From: Escherichia coli
GTDB lineage: Bacteria; Pseudomonadota; Gammaproteobacteria; Enterobacterales; Enterobacteriaceae
DNA length: 64,000 nt
Reading direction: 5' to 3' (one strand)
Assembly (NCBI RefSeq): GCF_044647545.1
Contig: NZ_CP172818.1
A program made the translations under genes and the position numbers. The notes below the pieces were generated by a model. It was given only the letters and a program-made list of their open reading frames with translations, had not been told where the DNA came from and did not search any database. Shown here in pieces: positions 35,768 to 47,037 of the stretch; the stretch's first letter is position 1, and each line of letters opens with the position of its first letter.

Positions 35768-35888
35768 GTGCGGCCTGAAAAACAGTGCTGTGCCCTTGTA
35801 ACTCATCATAATAATTTACGGCGCAGCCAAGATTTCCCTGGTGTTGGCGCAGTATTCGCGCACCCCGGTCTAGCCGGGGTCATTTTTT
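35768..35888 (+). ncRNA. arcZ: ArcZ (RyhA/SraH) Hfq-dependent sRNA, convergent with and overlapping the arcB 3' end
   Basis: Sequence GTGCGGCCTGAAAAACAGTGCTGTGCCCTTGTAACTCATCATAATAATTTACGGCGCAGCCAAGATTTCCCTGGTGTTGGCGCAGTATTCGCGCACCCCGGTCTAGCCGGGGTCATTTTTT, ending in a hairpin plus T-run. Confidence 0.8.
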
Positions 35889-38216
35889 AGTGGCTTTTGC
35901 CACCCACGCTTTCAGTACTTCTACGTCGTGACGCCACTCTTCTTTCATCTCTTCAATCCATTCACCGACGTTATCTTCCCAGGCGGGAAGGTCAGGAGAC
36001 TGAATTTGCTGACCCAGCTGTTGCAGATGGCGTAACCCCACTGACCCCGCCGCACCTTTAATTTTATGTCCTTCCTCAACAATGCCTTTTTTATCCTGCG
36101 CCGTCAGATTCGACTCCAGCACGCTGACATAGCCCGGCATCATCTTCTCAAACACCGCTAACCCGTCGGTGATCAGCTTCGGTCCTACAAGTTCGAGATA
36201 CTGTTCCAGCATGGGAATATCGAGCAATGCTTCTGATTTACTGTTCTCTTCTGTCGTCACCGTACTTTCCTCATCATCCTGGGTATCCCAGAATTTCTTG
36301 ATCATCGCGGTTAGCGCCGGAACAGAAAGCGGCTTACTCAGCACATCATCCATTCCAGCATTGAGGTACTCTTGTTTGTCTTTCAGCACGTTAGCGGTTA
36401 AGGCCACCAGCGGTGGTAAATCCTCGCGCGGATAACGCTTCGTCAGTTCACGAGAGATATCCAGCCCGGTCATATCTGGCAACTGAATATCCAGCAACAC
36501 CAGGTCGTATTCGCCCGGTTTAAACATCTCCAGCGCCGCCTTGCCGGTCATGGCGACATCAACGCTGTTACCTAATTTTTCCAGCACAGAGCGTGCGACA
36601 ATCACGTTCAGTTCAATGTCTTCCACCAGCAGCACATTCAGCGCCGGTAAAGGCATATCGTCTTCATCAAACGCATCATCAACCTCTTCTGCTACCGACG
36701 GTGCGTGGATCGTCAACGTAAAGGTTGAACCTTTGCCCTGTTCGCTGGTAACCGTAATATCGCCGCCCATATTTTTCGCCAGACGACGAGAAACGGCCAG
36801 ACCAATACCGGTGCCGGTGGCAGGTTTACCGCCATGACTGTCTTTCACCTGGTAATACATGGCGAAGATTTTATCCAGCTCATCCTGCGGAATGCCGATA
36901 CCAGAGTCTTCCACTTCAAAATGCAGCATATCGCCTTCATCGTAGCGCACGCGCACGGTAACCTGGCCTTGCTGGGTGAATTTGACGGCGTTACTGATGA
37001 GGTTCCACAGGATCTGCCGTAAACGCGTCCCGTCGGTAATGACCTGATGCGGTAATGGCAGCGTCGGCTCCAGATTAAAGCGCAATCCTTTTTGTTGCGC
37101 CTGCAAGGCGGAGAGATTTTCCAGATCGGCAAGGAAGCTGGTGAAATCAACCGGCTGATTATCAAGCTGGACCTTGCGCCGTTCCATCTTATCCATGTCG
37201 ATAATATCGTTGAAGATATTCCCCAGCGTGACGGCCGAAACATGGATGGTTTTGAGGTATTTTTCCTGCTCGGCGGTGAGTTCGGTATCCAGCAGAATGC
37301 GGCTCAGGCCGACGATACCATTCAGCGGTGTACGCAATTCGTGACTGATGGTGGAGATAAACGTCGTTTTGTCGCGGCTGGCCCGTTCAAGCGCATCCTG
37401 ATACCGCTTACGCTCGGTAATGTCGCGACCAAAGCCCATCAAACCGTGACGTTTACCCACGCGGTCGTAGTACGGCACTTTACGGATTTCAAAGCAGGCT
37501 TTGCGCCCGTCCGGGTAATCCAGCCACTGTTCATAGGTCAGTGACACATTATGACGGAACACTTTTTCATCGGTTTCAATGACTTTTGCGGCGGCTTCCG
37601 GTGAGTAAACATCAGCAGGTTTCAGGTGAACCAGTTGTTTTTCGCTTTTTCCGGTCAGCAGCTCCATCGCGCGGTTACAGCCGGAAAACTCTTTATCTTC
37701 GTTACGATAAAAAACCAGGTCGGGTGAAGCATCAAGGAAGGAACGTAAGAATGAGGATTGCTGCTCGAGCTGAATTTGTGTCTCTTCGCGCTCTTTGATT
37801 TCAATTTTCAGTTGGCCGAAGGTTTCCTGCAGTTCTGCTTCCGCTTTTTCACGAACGGCGATTTCCTGATTTAGCTGGGCAATATTATCTTTTAACTGAA
37901 CGTTGAGGCTCAAATCGCGCTCGCGCATCTCCTCCAGTTTTTGCACCAGTCGTGACAGACGTTGCCGTGACTCCTCCAGTTGCTCGACGACCACCGATAG
38001 AAAGTAGACCGCCCACGGCGTAATCAGCAAACCAAAGAAGATAGAACGAATAACATCAATGCTTTCGACCTGACCATGCAGCACCATGGTTACCGCCATT
38101 TGTACCACAATGGCAAGAACGACGAGGGCCAGCGCCAGCAACATTGAGAAGCGCACCAGACCTAACTTCATCATCAGGTCAACATAATACTGCGCCAGCA
38201 GACGAATTTGCTTCAT
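35880..38216 (-). CDS. arcB: Aerobic respiration control sensor histidine kinase ArcB
   Basis: 778-aa ORF MKQIRLLAQYYVDLMMKLGLVRFSMLLALALVVLAIVVQMAV...; HisKA H-box ISHELRTPLNG, receiver domain and C-terminal HPt domain. Confidence 0.95.
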   Translation of the reverse strand: MKQIRLLAQYYVDLMMKLGLVRFSMLLALALVVLAIVVQMAVTMVLHGQVESIDVIRSIFFGLLITPWAVYFLSVVVEQLEESRQRLSRLVQKLEEMRERDLSLNVQLKDNIAQLNQEIAVREKAEAELQETFGQLKIEIKEREETQIQLEQQSSFLRSFLDASPDLVFYRNEDKEFSGCNRAMELLTGKSEKQLVHLKPADVYSPEAAAKVIETDEKVFRHNVSLTYEQWLDYPDGRKACFEIRKVPYYDRVGKRHGLMGFGRDITERKRYQDALERASRDKTTFISTISHELRTPLNGIVGLSRILLDTELTAEQEKYLKTIHVSAVTLGNIFNDIIDMDKMERRKVQLDNQPVDFTSFLADLENLSALQAQQKGLRFNLEPTLPLPHQVITDGTRLRQILWNLISNAVKFTQQGQVTVRVRYDEGDMLHFEVEDSGIGIPQDELDKIFAMYYQVKDSHGGKPATGTGIGLAVSRRLAKNMGGDITVTSEQGKGSTFTLTIHAPSVAEEVDDAFDEDDMPLPALNVLLVEDIELNVIVARSVLEKLGNSVDVAMTGKAALEMFKPGEYDLVLLDIQLPDMTGLDISRELTKRYPREDLPPLVALTANVLKDKQEYLNAGMDDVLSKPLSVPALTAMIKKFWDTQDDEESTVTTEENSKSEALLDIPMLEQYLELVGPKLITDGLAVFEKMMPGYVSVLESNLTAQDKKGIVEEGHKIKGAAGSVGLRHLQQLGQQIQSPDLPAWEDNVGEWIEEMKEEWRHDVEVLKAWVAKATKK

Positions 38217-38311
38217 TAGGGAATTCCTTCACGACAACCTGCCCCAATAATACCCAATTCTGACAGTTACGTTATAAATTGTGTGAGAAATGCGGAATTC
38301 CCCTCAATGGC

Positions 38312-39241
38312 CTACGCCGTTGGAGGTAGCCACGGACGTCCCAGCGCCGATCCCTGTACGCCATGTTCATTCAGATAACGATCCAGCTCGACCATTCCCG
38401 TCCAGCGATTTTCGCACCACAGAGGAGCAAGCAGCGTCGGGCGACGGGCGCTGGCGGAAATGCGGTGGTAGATCACTTCCGGTGGCGTATGGCGAATCAT
38501 TTCTCCGGCAGTGAGCGTGTAATCTTCCAGTTCAATACCGTTCAAACGCCCCGCTTCCCAGGCTTTCGCCATAATGCTGCCTTTCACAATATGCAGCGGA
38601 TGCAGCTTTATGCCGTCCACGCCAGTTTCAACGACTCGCTCCAGCGTTTGCAAACATTCAGCCTGCCCTTCACCAGGCAGGCCGACAATTAAGTGAGAAC
38701 ACACCTTCAGCCCACGCTCACGCGCCAGCTGCGTCGTGCGCTGATAACAGGCAAAATCATGACCGCGATTGATGCGATGCAGCGTTTTGTCGTGGGCGGT
38801 TTGTAGCCCCAGCTCCAGCCACACTTCGTAACCCTGGTCCTTATATTCGCAAAGCAGATCCAGCACCGCATCCGGCACGCAGTCCGGGCGGGTACCAACA
38901 CACAAACCGACAATATTGGCCTGGCTCACCGCCTGCTGATACATAGAACGCAGCACCTGAACTTCCGCAAAGGTGCTGGTATACGCCTGAAAGTAGGCCA
39001 GATAGCGTTTAGCGCGGTTAACTAAATTCGCCTGGTGCGCCAGTTGCTCGGCAATGGAACGATGCTGCTGCGCTTCATCGGCAAACGAGGCCACATTACA
39101 GAATGTGCAGCCACCACGCCCGATGGTACCGTCACGGTTAGGGCAGCTAAAACCGCCGTGCAGCGTCAGCTTATGCACCTTTTGCCCATAACGACGGGTG
39201 AGATCACCACCAAACATATTGACTAATTTCTGTAACTGCAT
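38312..39241 (-). CDS. yhcC: Radical SAM protein YhcC (TIGR01212 family)
   Basis: ORF ...MQLQKLVNMFGGDLTRRYGQKVHKLTLHGGFSCPNRDGTIGRGGCTFCNVASF... with Cx(8-9)CxxC cluster motif; start moved to MQLQK (~309 aa). Confidence 0.8.
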   Translation of the reverse strand: MQLQKLVNMFGGDLTRRYGQKVHKLTLHGGFSCPNRDGTIGRGGCTFCNVASFADEAQQHRSIAEQLAHQANLVNRAKRYLAYFQAYTSTFAEVQVLRSMYQQAVSQANIVGLCVGTRPDCVPDAVLDLLCEYKDQGYEVWLELGLQTAHDKTLHRINRGHDFACYQRTTQLARERGLKVCSHLIVGLPGEGQAECLQTLERVVETGVDGIKLHPLHIVKGSIMAKAWEAGRLNGIELEDYTLTAGEMIRHTPPEVIYHRISASARRPTLLAPLWCENRWTGMVELDRYLNEHGVQGSALGRPWLPPTA

Positions 39242-39274
39242 AATCTGATAGACCGCGCCTTGAAAAGAGGCCAA

Positions 39275-39914
39275 AGCCTGCCATTTTTAGCTCAATTCGG
39301 CGATGACCTGGATCAATCGTCCCGGCCTGCTTTTATCAACTGCATAATCAATCAAAATTACCGAAATTTCATGCACAATCACATAAATCACTTTTGCTTA
39401 TCTTGTGTCAGATTTTTTTATCTCCTTATGGATTTTAGGCAAAAACAGTAGCATGAAACGTTATTACCAATTAAGGCAGTATAAAATGCTGGTTTTCTCG
39501 TCAGTTCAAGGCAGGATAAGGGTTAACACGCCTTTATGACAGTCAGGAATTGACTGTTTCTCTAACGACGCCCTTTTAGCCTTAAATAGAAAATCCACTT
39601 TAATTTCAGACAATTAATAAAGAATTTTGCGCTAAAGCACATTTCTGTACCAATAAGCTTGCCATTTGACCTGTATCAGCTTTCCCGATAAGTTGGAAAT
39701 CCGCTGGAAGCTTTCTGGATGAGCAGCCTGCTCATCATATTTATGCAGTAATTGAGATCCCCTCTTCACCGTATTAACCGATGCGAAAAGGACAACAAGG
39801 GGGCGAATGCGAGGCGCGCGTATGACACGCAAACCCCGTCGCCACGCTCTTACTGTGCCCGTGCGCAGCGGTTCGGAAGTGGGGTTCCCGCAGAGCCTGG
39901 GGGAGGTTCACGAT
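39275..39914 (+). promoter_or_regulatory. Long AT-rich gltBD promoter/leader region
   Basis: About 640 bp non-coding upstream of the gltB start, AT-rich with A/T tracts; position matches the multi-regulator gltBDF promoter of E. coli; individual sites not resolved by eye. Confidence 0.45.
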
Positions 39915-42900
39915 ATGTTGTACGATAAATCCCTTGAGAGGGATAACTGTGGTTTCGGCCTGATCGCCCACATAGAAGGCGAACCTAGCCACAAGGTAGT
40001 GCGTACTGCAATACACGCACTGGCCCGCATGCAGCACCGTGGCGCGATTCTCGCCGATGGTAAAACCGGTGACGGTTGCGGCTTGCTGTTACAAAAACCG
40101 GATCGCTTTTTTCGCATCGTTGCGCAGGAGCGCGGCTGGCGTTTAGCAAAAAACTACGCTGTCGGGATGCTCTTCCTGAATAAAGATCCTGAACTCGCCG
40201 CTGCCGCACGCCGCATCGTTGAAGAAGAGCTGCAACGCGAAACATTGTCGATTGTGGGCTGGCGTGATGTCCCCACTAACGAAGGCGTGCTGGGTGAAAT
40301 CGCCCTCTCCTCTCTGCCACGCATTGAGCAAATTTTTGTGAACGCCCCGGCAGGCTGGCGTCCACGCGATATGGAGCGCCGTCTGTTTATCGCCCGCCGC
40401 CGCATTGAAAAGCGTCTCGAAGCCGACAAAGACTTCTACGTCTGTAGCCTGTCGAATCTGGTGAACATCTATAAAGGTCTGTGTATGCCGGCGGATCTGC
40501 CGCGCTTTTATCTGGATCTTGCGGACCTGCGTCTGGAATCGGCCATTTGCCTGTTCCACCAGCGCTTTTCCACTAACACCGTACCGCGCTGGCCGCTGGC
40601 ACAGCCGTTCCGCTACCTCGCGCATAACGGTGAAATCAACACCATCACTGGTAACCGCCAATGGGCGCGTGCGCGTACCTATAAATTCCAGACGCCGCTG
40701 ATCCCTGACCTGCACGACGCCGCGCCGTTCGTCAACGAAACCGGCTCTGACTCCAGTTCCATGGATAACATGCTGGAACTGCTGCTGGCAGGCGGGATGG
40801 ATATCATCCGCGCCATGCGTCTGTTAGTGCCACCCGCCTGGCAGAACAACCCGGATATGGACCCGGAACTGCGTGCCTTCTTTGACTTTAACTCCATGCA
40901 TATGGAGCCGTGGGATGGCCCGGCAGGCATCGTGATGTCTGACGGTCGTTTTGCCGCCTGTAACCTCGACCGTAACGGTCTGCGTCCGGCACGCTATGTC
41001 ATCACCAAAGATAAGCTCATTACCTGCGCCTCTGAAGTCGGTATCTGGGATTATCAGCCTGACGAAGTGGTCGAAAAAGGCCGCGTCGGGCCAGGCGAAC
41101 TGATGGTGATCGACACCCGCAGTGGGCGTATTCTGCACTCGGCAGAAACCGATGACGATCTGAAAAGCCGCCATCCATATAAAGAGTGGATGGAGAAAAA
41201 CGTCCGCCGACTGGTACCGTTTGAAGATCTGCCCGATGAAGAAGTGGGTAGCCGCGAACTGGACGACGACACGCTTGCCAGCTACCAGAAACAGTTTAAC
41301 TACAGCGCGGAAGAGCTGGACTCCGTAATTCGCGTACTGGGTGAAAACGGTCAGGAAGCCGTCGGTTCGATGGGCGATGATACCCCATTCGCCGTGCTCT
41401 CCAGTCAGCCGCGCATTATTTACGACTACTTCCGCCAGCAGTTTGCTCAGGTAACCAACCCGCCAATCGACCCGCTGCGTGAAGCGCATGTTATGTCGCT
41501 CGCCACCAGCATTGGCCGCGAAATGAACGTCTTCTGCGAAGCTGAAGGCCAGGCGCACCGTTTAAGCTTTAAATCGCCGATTCTGCTCTATTCCGATTTC
41601 AAACAGCTCACGACGATGAAAGAGGATCACTACCGCGCAGATACGCTGGATATCACCTTTGACGTCACTAAAACCACGCTCGAAGCGACGGTGAAAGAGC
41701 TGTGCGACAAAGCCGAAAAAATGGTACGTAGCGGCACCGTGCTGCTGGTGCTCTCCGACCGGAATATCGCTAAAGATCGCCTGCCGGTTCCGGCTCCGAT
41801 GGCGGTTGGCGCGATCCAGACCCGTCTGGTCGAGCAAAGCCTGCGTTGCGATGCCAACATCATCGTCGAAACCGCCAGCGCCCGTGATCCGCACCACTTC
41901 GCCGTGTTGCTGGGTTTCGGCGCGACGGCTATTTATCCGTACCTTGCCTATGAAACGCTGGGCCGTCTGGTAGACACCCACGCGATTGCCAAAGATTATC
42001 GTACCGTGATGCTCAACTATCGTAACGGCATCAACAAAGGCTTGTACAAAATCATGTCCAAAATGGGCATCTCCACCATCGCCTCTTATCGCTGCTCGAA
42101 ACTGTTTGAAGCGGTCGGTCTGCACGATGATGTCGTGGGCCTGTGCTTCCAGGGCGCGGTTAGCCGCATTGGCGGGGCGAGCTTTGAAGACTTCCAGCAG
42201 GATCTGCTGAATCTGTCGAAACGTGCCTGGCTGGCGCGTAAGCCCATCAGCCAGGGCGGCCTGCTGAAATACGTGCACGGTGGCGAATACCACGCCTACA
42301 ACCCGGACGTGGTGCGCACACTGCAACAGGCGGTACAAAGCGGCGAGTACAGCGACTATCAGGAATACGCGAAGCTGGTTAATGAGCGTCCGGCAACCAC
42401 GCTGCGCGATCTGCTGGCAATTACGCCGGGTGAAAACGCAGTCAACATTGCCGATGTTGAACCGGCAAGCGAACTGTTTAAACGCTTCGATACCGCTGCG
42501 ATGTCTATCGGCGCGTTAAGCCCGGAAGCCCACGAGGCGCTGGCTGAAGCGATGAACAGCATCGGCGGTAACTCGAACTCCGGTGAAGGGGGTGAAGATC
42601 CGGCGCGCTACGGTACCAACAAAGTCTCACGCATCAAGCAGGTGGCGTCCGGTCGCTTCGGTGTTACTCCGGCGTATCTGGTCAATGCTGACGTCATTCA
42701 GATTAAAGTCGCCCAGGGCGCGAAGCCGGGCGAAGGCGGTCAGTTGCCGGGTGATAAAGTCACTCCTTACATTGCCAAACTGCGCTATTCGGTGCCCGGA
42801 GTGACGCTGATCTCCCCGCCGCCGCACCACGATATCTACTCTATCGAGGACTTAGCGCAGCTCATTTTCGACCTCAAGCAGGTTAACCCGAAAGCGATGA

Positions 42901-45788: not shown

Positions 45789-45909
45789 GGTGTTCTGGAA
45801 AGCGCCTCGCATAATCTGAAGAAAACCAATGTAATACGCACATCTGGATTGTTACCGGCCGATGCAGATCCCGGCGTATAGCTGATTCCATTATTCAACA
45901 CTGCGCCAT

Positions 45910-47037
45910 ATGAAGGGACAGATAATGGAATCGCTCTCAGAAGGAACCACAGCAGGCTACCAGCAAATCCACGACGGCATTATTCATCTGGTCGATAGCG
46001 CCCGGACGGAAACGGTACGTAGTGTTAACGCGTTAATGACCGCCACATACTGGGAAATTGGCCGACAAATTGTCGAATTTGAACAAGGTGGCGAGACCAG
46101 GGCTGCGTATGGTGCGCAGCTAATCAAGCGACTATCAAAGGATTTAAGTCTAAGGTATAAGCGTGGGTTTTCCACCAGGAATTTATGGCAGTTTAAGAAT
46201 TTTTATATTTGTTTTCAACGAATTGAAATTGTGCAGACACTGTCTGCACAATTCACCCCCACAATTCGCCAGACACTATCTGGCGAATCTTGCCATTTAG
46301 CGCAACTTGCCAAATCTTTCCCCCTGCCCTGGTCCACTTACGTCCGTTTGCTTTCTGTTAAAAACGCTGACGCTCGTAGCTTTTATGAGAAAGAAACACT
46401 CCGCTGTGGCTGGTCTGCTCGTCAGCTCGAACGGCAAATTGCGACCCAATTTTATGAGCGGACACTACTGTCACATGACAAATCAGCCATGCTGCAACAA
46501 CACGCTCCTGCCGAGACGCATATTCTTCCGCAACGGGCGATACGCGATCCCTTTGTGCTCGAATTTCTGGAATTGAAAGATGAATATTCAGAATCCGATT
46601 TTGAGGAGGCGCTGATCAACCACCTGATGGATTTCATGCTGGAACTTGGGGATGATTTTGCCTTTGTTAGTCGACAGCGAAGGTTACGCATTGATGACAA
46701 CTGGTTTCGTGTCGATCTGCTGTTTTTCCACCGCCGTTTACGCTGCCTGCTAATCGTCGATCTAAAAGTGGGCAAATTCAGCTATAGCGATGCCGGACAG
46801 ATGAATATGTATCTCAACTACGCCAAAGAGCACTGGACGCTACCGGATGAAAATCCGCCCATCGGTCTGATTCTCTGTGCAGAGAAAGGAGTCGGAGAAG
46901 CGCATTATGCACTGGCTGGTTTACCTAACACCGTTCTGGCGAGTGAATATAAGATGCAACTACCTGATGAAAAACGACTCGCGGATGAACTCGTTCGAAC
47001 ACAGGCGGTGTTAGAGGAAGGCTATAGACGCCGTTAA
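45910..47037 (+). CDS. yhcG: DUF1016 / PD-(D/E)XK nuclease-superfamily protein YhcG
   Basis: 375-aa ORF MKGQIMESLSEGTTAGYQQIHDGIIHLVDSARTETVRS...; C-terminal region has restriction-endonuclease-like D...(E/D)xK spacing (RVDLLFF, IVDLKVGKF); alternative start at ATG 45925 (MESLSEG). Confidence 0.8.
   Translation: MKGQIMESLSEGTTAGYQQIHDGIIHLVDSARTETVRSVNALMTATYWEIGRQIVEFEQGGETRAAYGAQLIKRLSKDLSLRYKRGFSTRNLWQFKNFYICFQRIEIVQTLSAQFTPTIRQTLSGESCHLAQLAKSFPLPWSTYVRLLSVKNADARSFYEKETLRCGWSARQLERQIATQFYERTLLSHDKSAMLQQHAPAETHILPQRAIRDPFVLEFLELKDEYSESDFEEALINHLMDFMLELGDDFAFVSRQRRLRIDDNWFRVDLLFFHRRLRCLLIVDLKVGKFSYSDAGQMNMYLNYAKEHWTLPDENPPIGLILCAEKGVGEAHYALAGLPNTVLASEYKMQLPDEKRLADELVRTQAVLEEGYRRR
46227..46253. 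repeat. 27-bp palindrome, copy 1 (inside yhcG CDS)
   Basis: aattgtgcagaca-c-tgtctgcacaatt: perfect 13-bp arms around a single central base. Confidence 0.7.
46263..46289. repeat. 27-bp palindrome, copy 2 (inside yhcG CDS, 9 bp after copy 1)
   Basis: aattcgccagaca-c-tatctggcgaatc: 11 of 13 arm positions complementary; same AATT....CAGACAC core as copies 1 and 3. Confidence 0.7.

Follow-up and report, generated by a model that had tools for sequence, protein, structure and literature searches.

The control region of the glutamate synthase operon gltBDF is already known, since few promoter regions of E. coli have been characterised so well. The K-12 gltB promoter (PgltB) has been studied by Ernsting, Wiese, Paul, Blumenthal and Matthews, and Lrp, IHF, Crp and ArgR were mapped there as direct regulators (Paul et al. 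2007, PMC1784095). RNA polymerase leaves a footprint on this promoter only if Lrp and IHF are both present, or if Crp is (PMC1784095). It shares with other promoters activated from a distance by Lrp plus IHF the multiple, phased, far-upstream Lrp sites, the IHF bend in between and the weak promoter, as well as AT-rich DNA with an A/T phasing of about 10 bp. It differs from them, according to Paul et al. (PMC1784095), in that Lrp is leucine-insensitive and is bound unusually far away (>150 bp); in addition, Crp represses it from −65.5. This published K-12 work ends at transcription initiation, and the leader is not treated there as RNA. For the same gene, a post-transcriptional repression around the start codon has been described in Vibrio alginolyticus, where it is exerted by CsrA (PMC12298160). 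The protein binding, the effects on transcription, the transcription start sites (TSSs) and the RNA 3′ ends cited below are the work of others; the placement of the features, the A/T phasing, the true gltB start and the conservation and covariation of the leader are added here.

The window, a stretch of 64,000 nucleotides from E. coli (contig NZ_CP172818.1), contains a chromosomal locus with the gene order arcB-yhcC-gltB (RefSeq annotation). Positions 39200-39960 match E. coli FDAARGOS_497 at 100% identity and K-12 derivatives at 98.3% (the latter figure over 761 bp); of 5426 complete E. coli genomes, 5416 contain them. Compared with K-12 PgltB, this strain carries few polymorphisms, e.g. CACAATCAC here versus CATAATCAC under the primer gltP1, and a length difference of 1 nt; K-12 coordinates were converted to those of the window by subtracting 3314809. 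The first-pass annotation had separated yhcC from gltB by about 640 bp. The gap is real, but its left edge, which had been set at 39275, is wrong:

39239..39241, minus strand: ATG start codon of yhcC (mnmL in newer records), as annotated by RefSeq in K-12 and in the 100%-identical strain; actual left boundary of the gap

The mechanical open reading frame of yhcC starts at a TTG at 39274, 11 codons upstream of the annotated ATG at 39241, from which a product of 309 amino acids is annotated. Because yhcC starts at 39241 and gltB at 39915, the gap extends from 39242 to 39914, i.e. 673 bp. It had been called unusually long, and it is: in K-12 the corresponding 674 bp make it the longest of about 48 intergenic gaps in the 50-kb neighbourhood, ahead of gaps of 559, 394 and 379 bp.

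The same annotation described the region as AT-rich with phased A/T tracts. The AT-richness holds for the first 457 bp (GC 0.381 at 39242-39698, and 0.347 at 39333-39698) and not for the last 216 bp, which are transcribed and have a GC content of about 57% (0.57 at 39700-39899); the genes flanking the gap lie at 0.50-0.61. In the AT-rich part the AA/TT power peaks at 10.0 bp, at a height reached by 0 of 500 dinucleotide-preserving shuffles, and the centres of A/T tracts of at least 4 bases are also phased (p=0.008). The number of such tracts in the gap is not above expectation (23 versus 19.6). The phasing is thus real, in a description that fits only the upstream two thirds.

It is very probable that the gap is the complete control region of gltBDF, made of three modules in series, which would be why it is so long. 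The first module (39333-39698) would be an AT-rich, helically phased upstream activating region, in which three Lrp sites and an IHF bend would activate a weak sigma-70 promoter (+1 at 39699) over a distance of more than 150 bp, with repression by Crp at −65.5 and by ArgR at −361 to −318. The second (39699-39914) would be the GC-rich leader of 216 nt, whose conserved stem-loops would add a post-transcriptional layer. The third (39242-39360) would bring together the start region of yhcC, a site bound by FNR and the small transcript G0-10702, which runs divergently.

For the first module, an earlier prediction of a promoter under nucleoid-protein and multi-regulator control proved right, since the published Lrp, IHF, Crp, ArgR and FNR sites map to this gap. 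The published primers and sites fall in a self-consistent register in the window, and the Crp, Lrp, IHF and ArgR sites and the promoter could be placed at their published distances from +1. Position 39699 was assigned to +1 from three anchors that agree: the centre of the Crp site, the ends of the primers gltP1 and gltP2 (gltP1 5′ end, −325 = 39374; gltP2 end, +8 = 39705/6) and the centre of Lrp site 2. The published mutagenic primer gltcrp1 matches the window except for its designed changes and one further base. Regulator binding and its effects on transcription were established in K-12 derivatives (PMC1784095, PMC1802558), and the same sites are predicted from sequence for this strain:

39338..39381, no strand: ArgR operator with two ARG boxes, repressing; DNase I footprint from −361 to −318 (PMC1784095) with +1 = 39699

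39439..39559, no strand: Lrp-binding region; its three sites have their centres at 39453, 39484 and 39547 (−246, −215 and −152; PMC1784095)

39477-39491, no strand: Lrp site 2, CAGTATAAAATGCTG, the best match to the Lrp consensus, whose centre, 39484, is at exactly −215

39539-39557, no strand: Lrp site 1, the palindrome ACAGTCAGGAATTGACTGT, read from the window sequence

39586..39624, no strand: IHF site (−113 to −75; PMC1784095, converted to window coordinates)

39623..39644, no strand: Crp site AATTTTGCGCTAAAGCACATTT (−76 to −55, centre −65.5), repressing; footprint and mutagenesis (PMC1784095)

39666..39699, plus strand: sigma-70 promoter of gltBDF, with −35 element TTGACC at 39666-39671, −10 region at 39687-39694 (GATAAGTT) and +1 at about 39699

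The ARG boxes are kept in the alignment across genera, and the −35 element and the TAA of the −10 region are conserved out to Photorhabdus. A simple consensus promoter scan called no promoter in the gap, that of gltBDF included, which fits the dependence of this promoter on activators.

At the yhcC-proximal end, the gap was found to be bound in vivo by FNR in a ChIP-chip study (Grainger et al., PMC1802558), and a MarA ChIP-seq peak has been reported in the yhcC-gltB gap of Salmonella. This end also bears on a suggestion of the first-pass annotation, that the region might hide a leader peptide or a small RNA. The small RNA is borne out by a candidate non-coding RNA in the gap that has a TSS determined by 5′-specific RNA-seq and a Term-seq 3′ end inside it:

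39298..39321, no strand: predicted FNR site CGGCGATGACCTGGATCAATCGTC in the FNR ChIP-chip target (Grainger et al., PMC1802558)

39255..39360, plus strand: candidate non-coding RNA G0-10702, divergent from yhcC; K-12 3354064-3354169 (+) (PMC7967276)

39257..39271, plus strand: 5′ hairpin of G0-10702, GCCUU-GAAAA-GAGGC, within its first 17 nt, predicted by RNAalifold

39303..39347, plus strand: possible small open reading frame of 14 codons (MTWINRPGLLLSTA) in G0-10702, whose frame is kept across variants

The block of the FNR site is the most conserved piece of the AT-rich half, with 92% identity at 39302-39321 across 10 genera; its position is given as −399.5 by Grainger et al. and is −389.5 here with +1 = 39699. 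Apart from this 10-nt difference, no observation speaks against identifying the gap as the gltBDF control region. The TSS of G0-10702, at K-12 3354064 (+), was confirmed by two 5′-specific RNA-seq data sets, that of yhcC is at K-12 3354077 (39268, minus strand), and G0-10702 overlaps the yhcC 5′ UTR by 15 bp (PMC7967276). The Term-seq 3′ end inside it is at K-12 3354141 (+), i.e. 39332 (Adams et al. 2021, PMC7815308). G0-10702 is the ‘yhcC-gltB’ sRNA detected in E. coli by RNA-seq by Raghavan, Groisman and Ochman (2011); as that work is cited in a paper on Erwinia (PMC4070566), its abundance falls in an hfq mutant and it is described as having no Rho-independent terminator. EcoCyc dropped G0-10702 in 2019 for lack of evidence (PMC7967276), and the RNA is absent from RefSeq and Rfam. 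Our terminator scan found no terminator-like site at 39332 or 39360, and a terminator with a U-tail of the type of Hfq-dependent sRNAs is missing from G0-10702. A possible promoter is formed by TTGACT (39219-39224) and TAATCT (39241-39246), which the consensus scan did not call. ECS018, an antisense RNA assigned to the ‘gltBDF operon’, was also considered as an RNA of this gap and was set aside, as it is located in the gltD-gltF spacer.

To the published description of G0-10702 we add the covarying 5′ hairpin and the possible 14-codon reading frame. The folding energy of the RNA is no better than that of shuffles. A hairpin is kept at its 5′ end in other genera with different stems (GUCCC/GGGAC, CGCCC/GGGCG, CCCCAU/AUGGGG), with two-sided changes at 2 of 4 pairs in the RNAalifold structure. 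As the yhcC TSS at 39268 lies inside this hairpin, only the RNA of the plus strand would carry it whole. The invariant block of the FNR box forms a predicted hairpin loop of G0-10702 and also holds the ATG of the 14-codon frame. Of the 24 variants listed, 21 have this frame open, at lengths of 10-25 amino acids (mostly 13-15); it has no Shine-Dalgarno sequence. G0-10702 may be a second functional RNA, or a 14-codon mRNA.

The small frame belongs to a broader alternative, namely that part of the gap encodes protein, as an N-terminal extension of GltB (from an ATG at 39807 or 39822), a leader peptide or a small protein. We regard this alternative as very unlikely. The small frame speaks for it insofar as it is retained and shows synonymous variation in some codons, with all four synonymous forms seen for the Pro and Gly codons. 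Against this, codons 1-6 are near-invariant at all three positions, like a binding site, and the C-terminal half drifts, with 12 synonymous versus 73 non-synonymous differences. The longest open reading frames of the gap (63, 44, 58 and 66 amino acids) have no Pfam match and sit in stretches that are poorly aligned and rich in indels across genera; the earlier statement that the gap holds no convincing open reading frame was therefore correct.

The GltB extension depends on where gltB starts:

39899-39906 and 39915-39917, plus strand: gltB Shine-Dalgarno sequence GGGGGAGG and start codon ATG, respectively, from cross-genus conservation

In favour of an extension, the gltB frame of E. coli stays open for 53 codons upstream, the ATGs found there are preceded by Shine-Dalgarno-like sequences, and an older annotation starts the protein at 39822 (MTRKPRR). 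Nevertheless, an in-frame TAG interrupts this frame seven codons upstream of gltB in five genera, the peptides it would encode are unrelated between genera and not conserved as protein, and the AUG at 39807 reads ACG in four leaders. In a comparison that covered nine further enterobacterial genera as well as Yersinia and Photorhabdus, conservation of the MLYDK start and of the Shine-Dalgarno sequence extends from Citrobacter as far as the latter two, and among 80 gammaproteobacterial loci the GltB similarity begins in most at residue 1-2. On this comparative evidence, gltB is assigned the start at 39915 and not the older upstream ATG, which makes the segment from the TSS onward a leader of 216 nt predicted to be untranslated.

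39699..39914, plus strand: 5′ leader of gltB, 216 nt, from the TSS to the conserved start codon

39718..39736, plus strand: stem-loop SL1, 8 bp, from covariation among 34 leaders

39737..39765, plus strand: near-invariant unpaired stretch CAUAUUUAUGCAGUAAUUGAGAU(C/U)CCCUCU, from alignments

39743-39751, plus strand: mini reading frame of two codons, AUG CAG UAA, inside the unpaired stretch 39737-39765, without Shine-Dalgarno sequence upstream

39802..39843, plus strand: stem-loop SL3, a long irregular hairpin with variable tip, from covariation

The mini reading frame is the only conserved one in the leader, with AUGCAGUAA present in 32 of 34 leaders and UUA standing in place of the stop in the other two. 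Its retention would favour coding, but it has neither a Shine-Dalgarno sequence nor regulatory codons. The supposed leader peptide is hence not found in any classical form, and nothing of the trp/his type of leader-peptide attenuator for amino acids was seen in the leader, where upstream AUGs are not conserved.

Species-representative genomes and metagenome contigs together yielded 34 distinct leaders; in the metagenome pattern scan, about 22 of 120 stretches were true leaders, the others being chance matches to the 16-mer. The block at 39682-39761 is the best-conserved part of the gap, with 93-99% identity across 10 genera, and the stretch of the Lrp, IHF and Crp sites is the least conserved, with 32-69% identity per 20-bp bin over the same number of genera. 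A second near-invariant unpaired stretch occupies 39699-39717. SL1 shows two-sided changes at 6 of its 8 pairs, with 96% of cells paired in the 34 leaders, and is more stable than shuffles (folding z = −2.43). In all genera but Escherichia and its closest relatives it is followed by SL2 and by a closing helix, CCCUCU/AGAGGG; in Escherichia and its closest relatives SL2 was lost with a 14-nt deletion near 39772. Scored jointly as one structure of 20 pairs, SL1, SL2 and the CCCUCU/AGAGGG helix are 96.6% paired, with a covariation score reached by 0 of 500 shuffles, a count that is not a probability, the leader sequences being related.

SL3 folds as a single hairpin in 28 of 28 distinct variants. 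Its cells are paired in 93.8% of cases, with two-sided changes at 5 of the 9 pairs tested, and here too 0 of 500 shuffles reached the value (a count to be read in the same way). At the base an A-U pair is replaced by G-C in Yersinia; at the tip the compensated forms GCGU/ACGC, GCAUAC/GUAUGC, GGUGC/GCACC and GUGU/ACAC are seen, and in some lineages the tip is wholly missing. Slid controls for SL1 and SL3 dropped to 28-65% paired. The case for a structured leader rests on covariation, because the folding energies in E. coli are ordinary for SL3 (z = +0.32) and for the whole leader (z = +0.45 and +0.37). A pairing of the leader 5′ end with the Shine-Dalgarno region, proposed by RNAalifold, was rejected, as most of its pairs would break in Photorhabdus; it lies beyond a covariation test because both sides are invariant.

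A covariance model of 73 nt, built on the 5′ part of the leader, matches every Enterobacterales locus, which are the loci it was trained on, and gave no match upstream of gltB in Orbaceae, Vibrio, Aeromonas, Shewanella, Pseudoalteromonas, Pseudomonas or Acinetobacter. An Rfam scan of 38200-40500 on both strands (E<=1) gave no match either, and neither the literature searched nor Rfam describes a conserved folding of the gltB leader. The leader has helices with compensatory changes, as is generally expected of a structured cis-regulatory RNA, and we infer that it is itself regulatory.

The conservation past +1 might instead reflect DNA signals, such as the initial transcribed sequence, downstream regulator sites or a second promoter, the RNA having no function. 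This would agree with the fact that the most conserved block begins upstream of +1, at 39682, and continues seamlessly into the transcript, and with RNA polymerase footprints that depend on the bound regulators (Paul et al., PMC1784095). Compensatory double changes in SL1 (6/8) and SL3 (5/9) are however unexpected for DNA that binds protein, and the indels of whole hairpins at the SL3 tip and the loss of SL2 respect helix boundaries. We therefore give little credence to an explanation by DNA signals.

In the K-12 Term-seq data an RNA 3′ end falls inside this leader:

39847, plus strand: published RNA 3′ end, 4 nt past SL3; Term-seq K-12 3354657 (+), score 1304 (PMC7815308)

A leader RNA ending there would be about 149 nt long. 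Adams et al. (2021, PMC7815308) filed 3354657 as ‘internal, 25 nt into gltB’, because the older, longer annotation of gltB was used. With the start at 39915 this end should be classed as a 5′ UTR end and not as internal to the open reading frame, which corrects the published class. It would thus join the premature 5′ UTR ends described in the same data set (PMC7815308), and lies directly after a conserved hairpin.

A premature end 4 nt after the conserved SL3, together with three stem-loops joined by invariant segments in a leader for which no known RNA family accounts, could be taken as conditional premature termination, with SL3 and 39847 forming part of a transcription attenuator or of an element like a metabolite riboswitch (for e.g. 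glutamine, glutamate or 2-oxoglutarate). Such a mechanism seems improbable to us. SL3 has no adjacent U-tract, was not called by the terminator scan and so lacks the features of an intrinsic terminator or of a classical attenuator; two terminator-like matches of the scan in the gap are not above shuffle expectation, and SL1, terminator-like in a loose scan, has no Term-seq 3′ end listed. The position 39847 is absent from the published Rho termination regions, none of which is listed at the leader (PMC7815308), and an end 4 nt past a stem resembles exonuclease trimming. As to a riboswitch, the element occurs in a single order, the complete loss of SL2 in E. coli would be odd for a ligand-binding core, and long invariant unpaired stretches better suit a macromolecular partner. 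The 3′ end at 39847 is more readily understood as the result of trimming or processing up to SL3, which would protect it, than as the product of a classical terminator.

Taken together, the 2-3 covarying stem-loops, the approximately 60 invariant unpaired bases and the 149-nt 5′ fragment, taken as stable, lead us to propose, tentatively and short of calling it probable, that the leader is an undescribed cis-regulatory RNA, present throughout Enterobacterales, which would tune glutamate synthase after initiation in response to CsrA, to an iron- or nitrogen-responsive sRNA or to a metabolite.

A related explanation, which we hold possible but on the unlikely side, is that the leader acts through a trans-acting factor that binds RNA, either CsrA at GGA motifs or an Hfq-dependent sRNA such as RyhB. 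CsrA would bind the conserved GGA motifs at 39706 and 39717 and the Shine-Dalgarno sequence, which contains a GGA itself. These two 5′ motifs lie about 190 nt from the Shine-Dalgarno sequence; one is kept in 34/34 leaders and the other in 30/34. In V. alginolyticus the gltB mRNA is a high-affinity target of CsrA, which represses gltBD more than 10-fold (PMC12298160). The GGA count is nevertheless not above chance (5 versus 4.2 expected) and no GGA motif stands in a hairpin loop. The V. alginolyticus leader has no homology of sequence or structure to the enterobacterial one, the 73-nt model finding nothing outside Enterobacterales.

RyhB would pair with the invariant GCUGGAAGC (39703-39711). 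In support of this, gltB was listed by ribosome profiling as a new candidate for RyhB repression at the translational level, and the RyhB seed UUGCUCACAUUGCUUCCAGU is complementary to 39703-39726. The duplex of −23.1 kcal/mol is however no better than those of shuffled leaders (mean −23.9), and its second half falls in the arm of SL1, which varies between genera while RyhB is constant. Overproduction of OmrA/B lowers the levels of GltB and GltD, an effect that is possibly indirect according to its authors. Full-length RNAduplex runs with RyhB, OmrA/B, ArcZ and G0-10702 returned meaningless whole-length duplexes and were discarded; in a windowed duplex test only OmrB beat 30 of 30 shuffles, and this candidate was rejected too, as the duplex used the terminator hairpin of OmrB. 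If CsrA or an sRNA did act here, it would tune the translation or the stability of an abundant iron-sulfur enzyme.

The control of gltBDF transcription by four global regulators is textbook knowledge, to which finding the region again adds nothing. Two leads arise beside it, chiefly the gltB leader with its conservation and structure, and less so G0-10702. Glutamate synthase stands at the junction of carbon and nitrogen metabolism, and by one estimate its cycle uses about 15% of the ATP turned over in minimal medium (PMC1784095). Across genera the DNA that binds the proteins has drifted, whereas the transcribed leader is near-frozen, with its helices kept by compensatory change. This suggests that the most strongly constrained layer of gltBDF control is the so far unstudied leader.

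The reading frame of gltB is open upstream of its real start at 39915, from 39807 to 39914 on the + strand, and two ATG codons are found in this extension, each of them preceded by a Shine-Dalgarno sequence. Because of this open frame and its two ATG codons, gltB was annotated in older records as a protein of 1517 aa and the Term-seq 3' end at K-12 3354657 (39847 in the window), which lies in the gltB leader, was misfiled as internal to an ORF.

In the cross-genus comparison of gltB leaders, which included loci L004-L012, a 14-nt segment near 39772 is missing in E. coli, in K-12 and in one metagenome relative (L174). In all other genera compared, the same segment forms the hairpin SL2 (GCAAGU...ACUUGU).

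Two further features concern G0-10702, the candidate ncRNA divergent from yhcC:

39303-39347, + strand: 14-codon ORF MTWINRPGLLLSTA within G0-10702, with its start inside the predicted FNR box
39219-39246, + strand: possible G0-10702 promoter (TTGACT, 16 bp, TAATCT), within the first yhcC codons on the opposite strand

The frame and the approximate length of the ORF are retained in most genera, with synonymous variation at Pro and Gly codons; codons 1-6 are invariant at every position and the tail is unconserved. The possible promoter was not called by the consensus scan.

For the yhcC gene itself (38312-39241, - strand), RefSeq records differ in the name: some recent ones give mnmL (tRNA modification radical SAM protein MnmL/YtqA), others 'TIGR01212 family radical SAM protein'. 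The yhcC-gltB region is absent from 10 of the 5426 complete E. coli genomes, and one complete genome carries an extra copy on a plasmid.

The second-longest gap nearby is the gltD-gltF spacer of 559 bp (window ~45807-46365, K-12 3360617-3361175). ECS018, a reported antisense candidate, lies in this spacer, as do two Term-seq 3' ends, at K-12 3360660 and K-12 3360783. The strongest Term-seq 3' end of the neighbourhood is that of the sRNA gene arcZ (window ~35768-35888, K-12 3350577-3350697), which runs antisense to arcB and overlaps its 3' end.

Finally, the seed region of RyhB (nt 42-62) is complementary to 39703-39726 (+ strand), i.e. to the invariant leader sequence GCUGGAAGC and the 5' arm of the stem-loop SL1, a match that is suggestive in the case of an iron-sulfur enzyme but statistically indistinguishable from chance.
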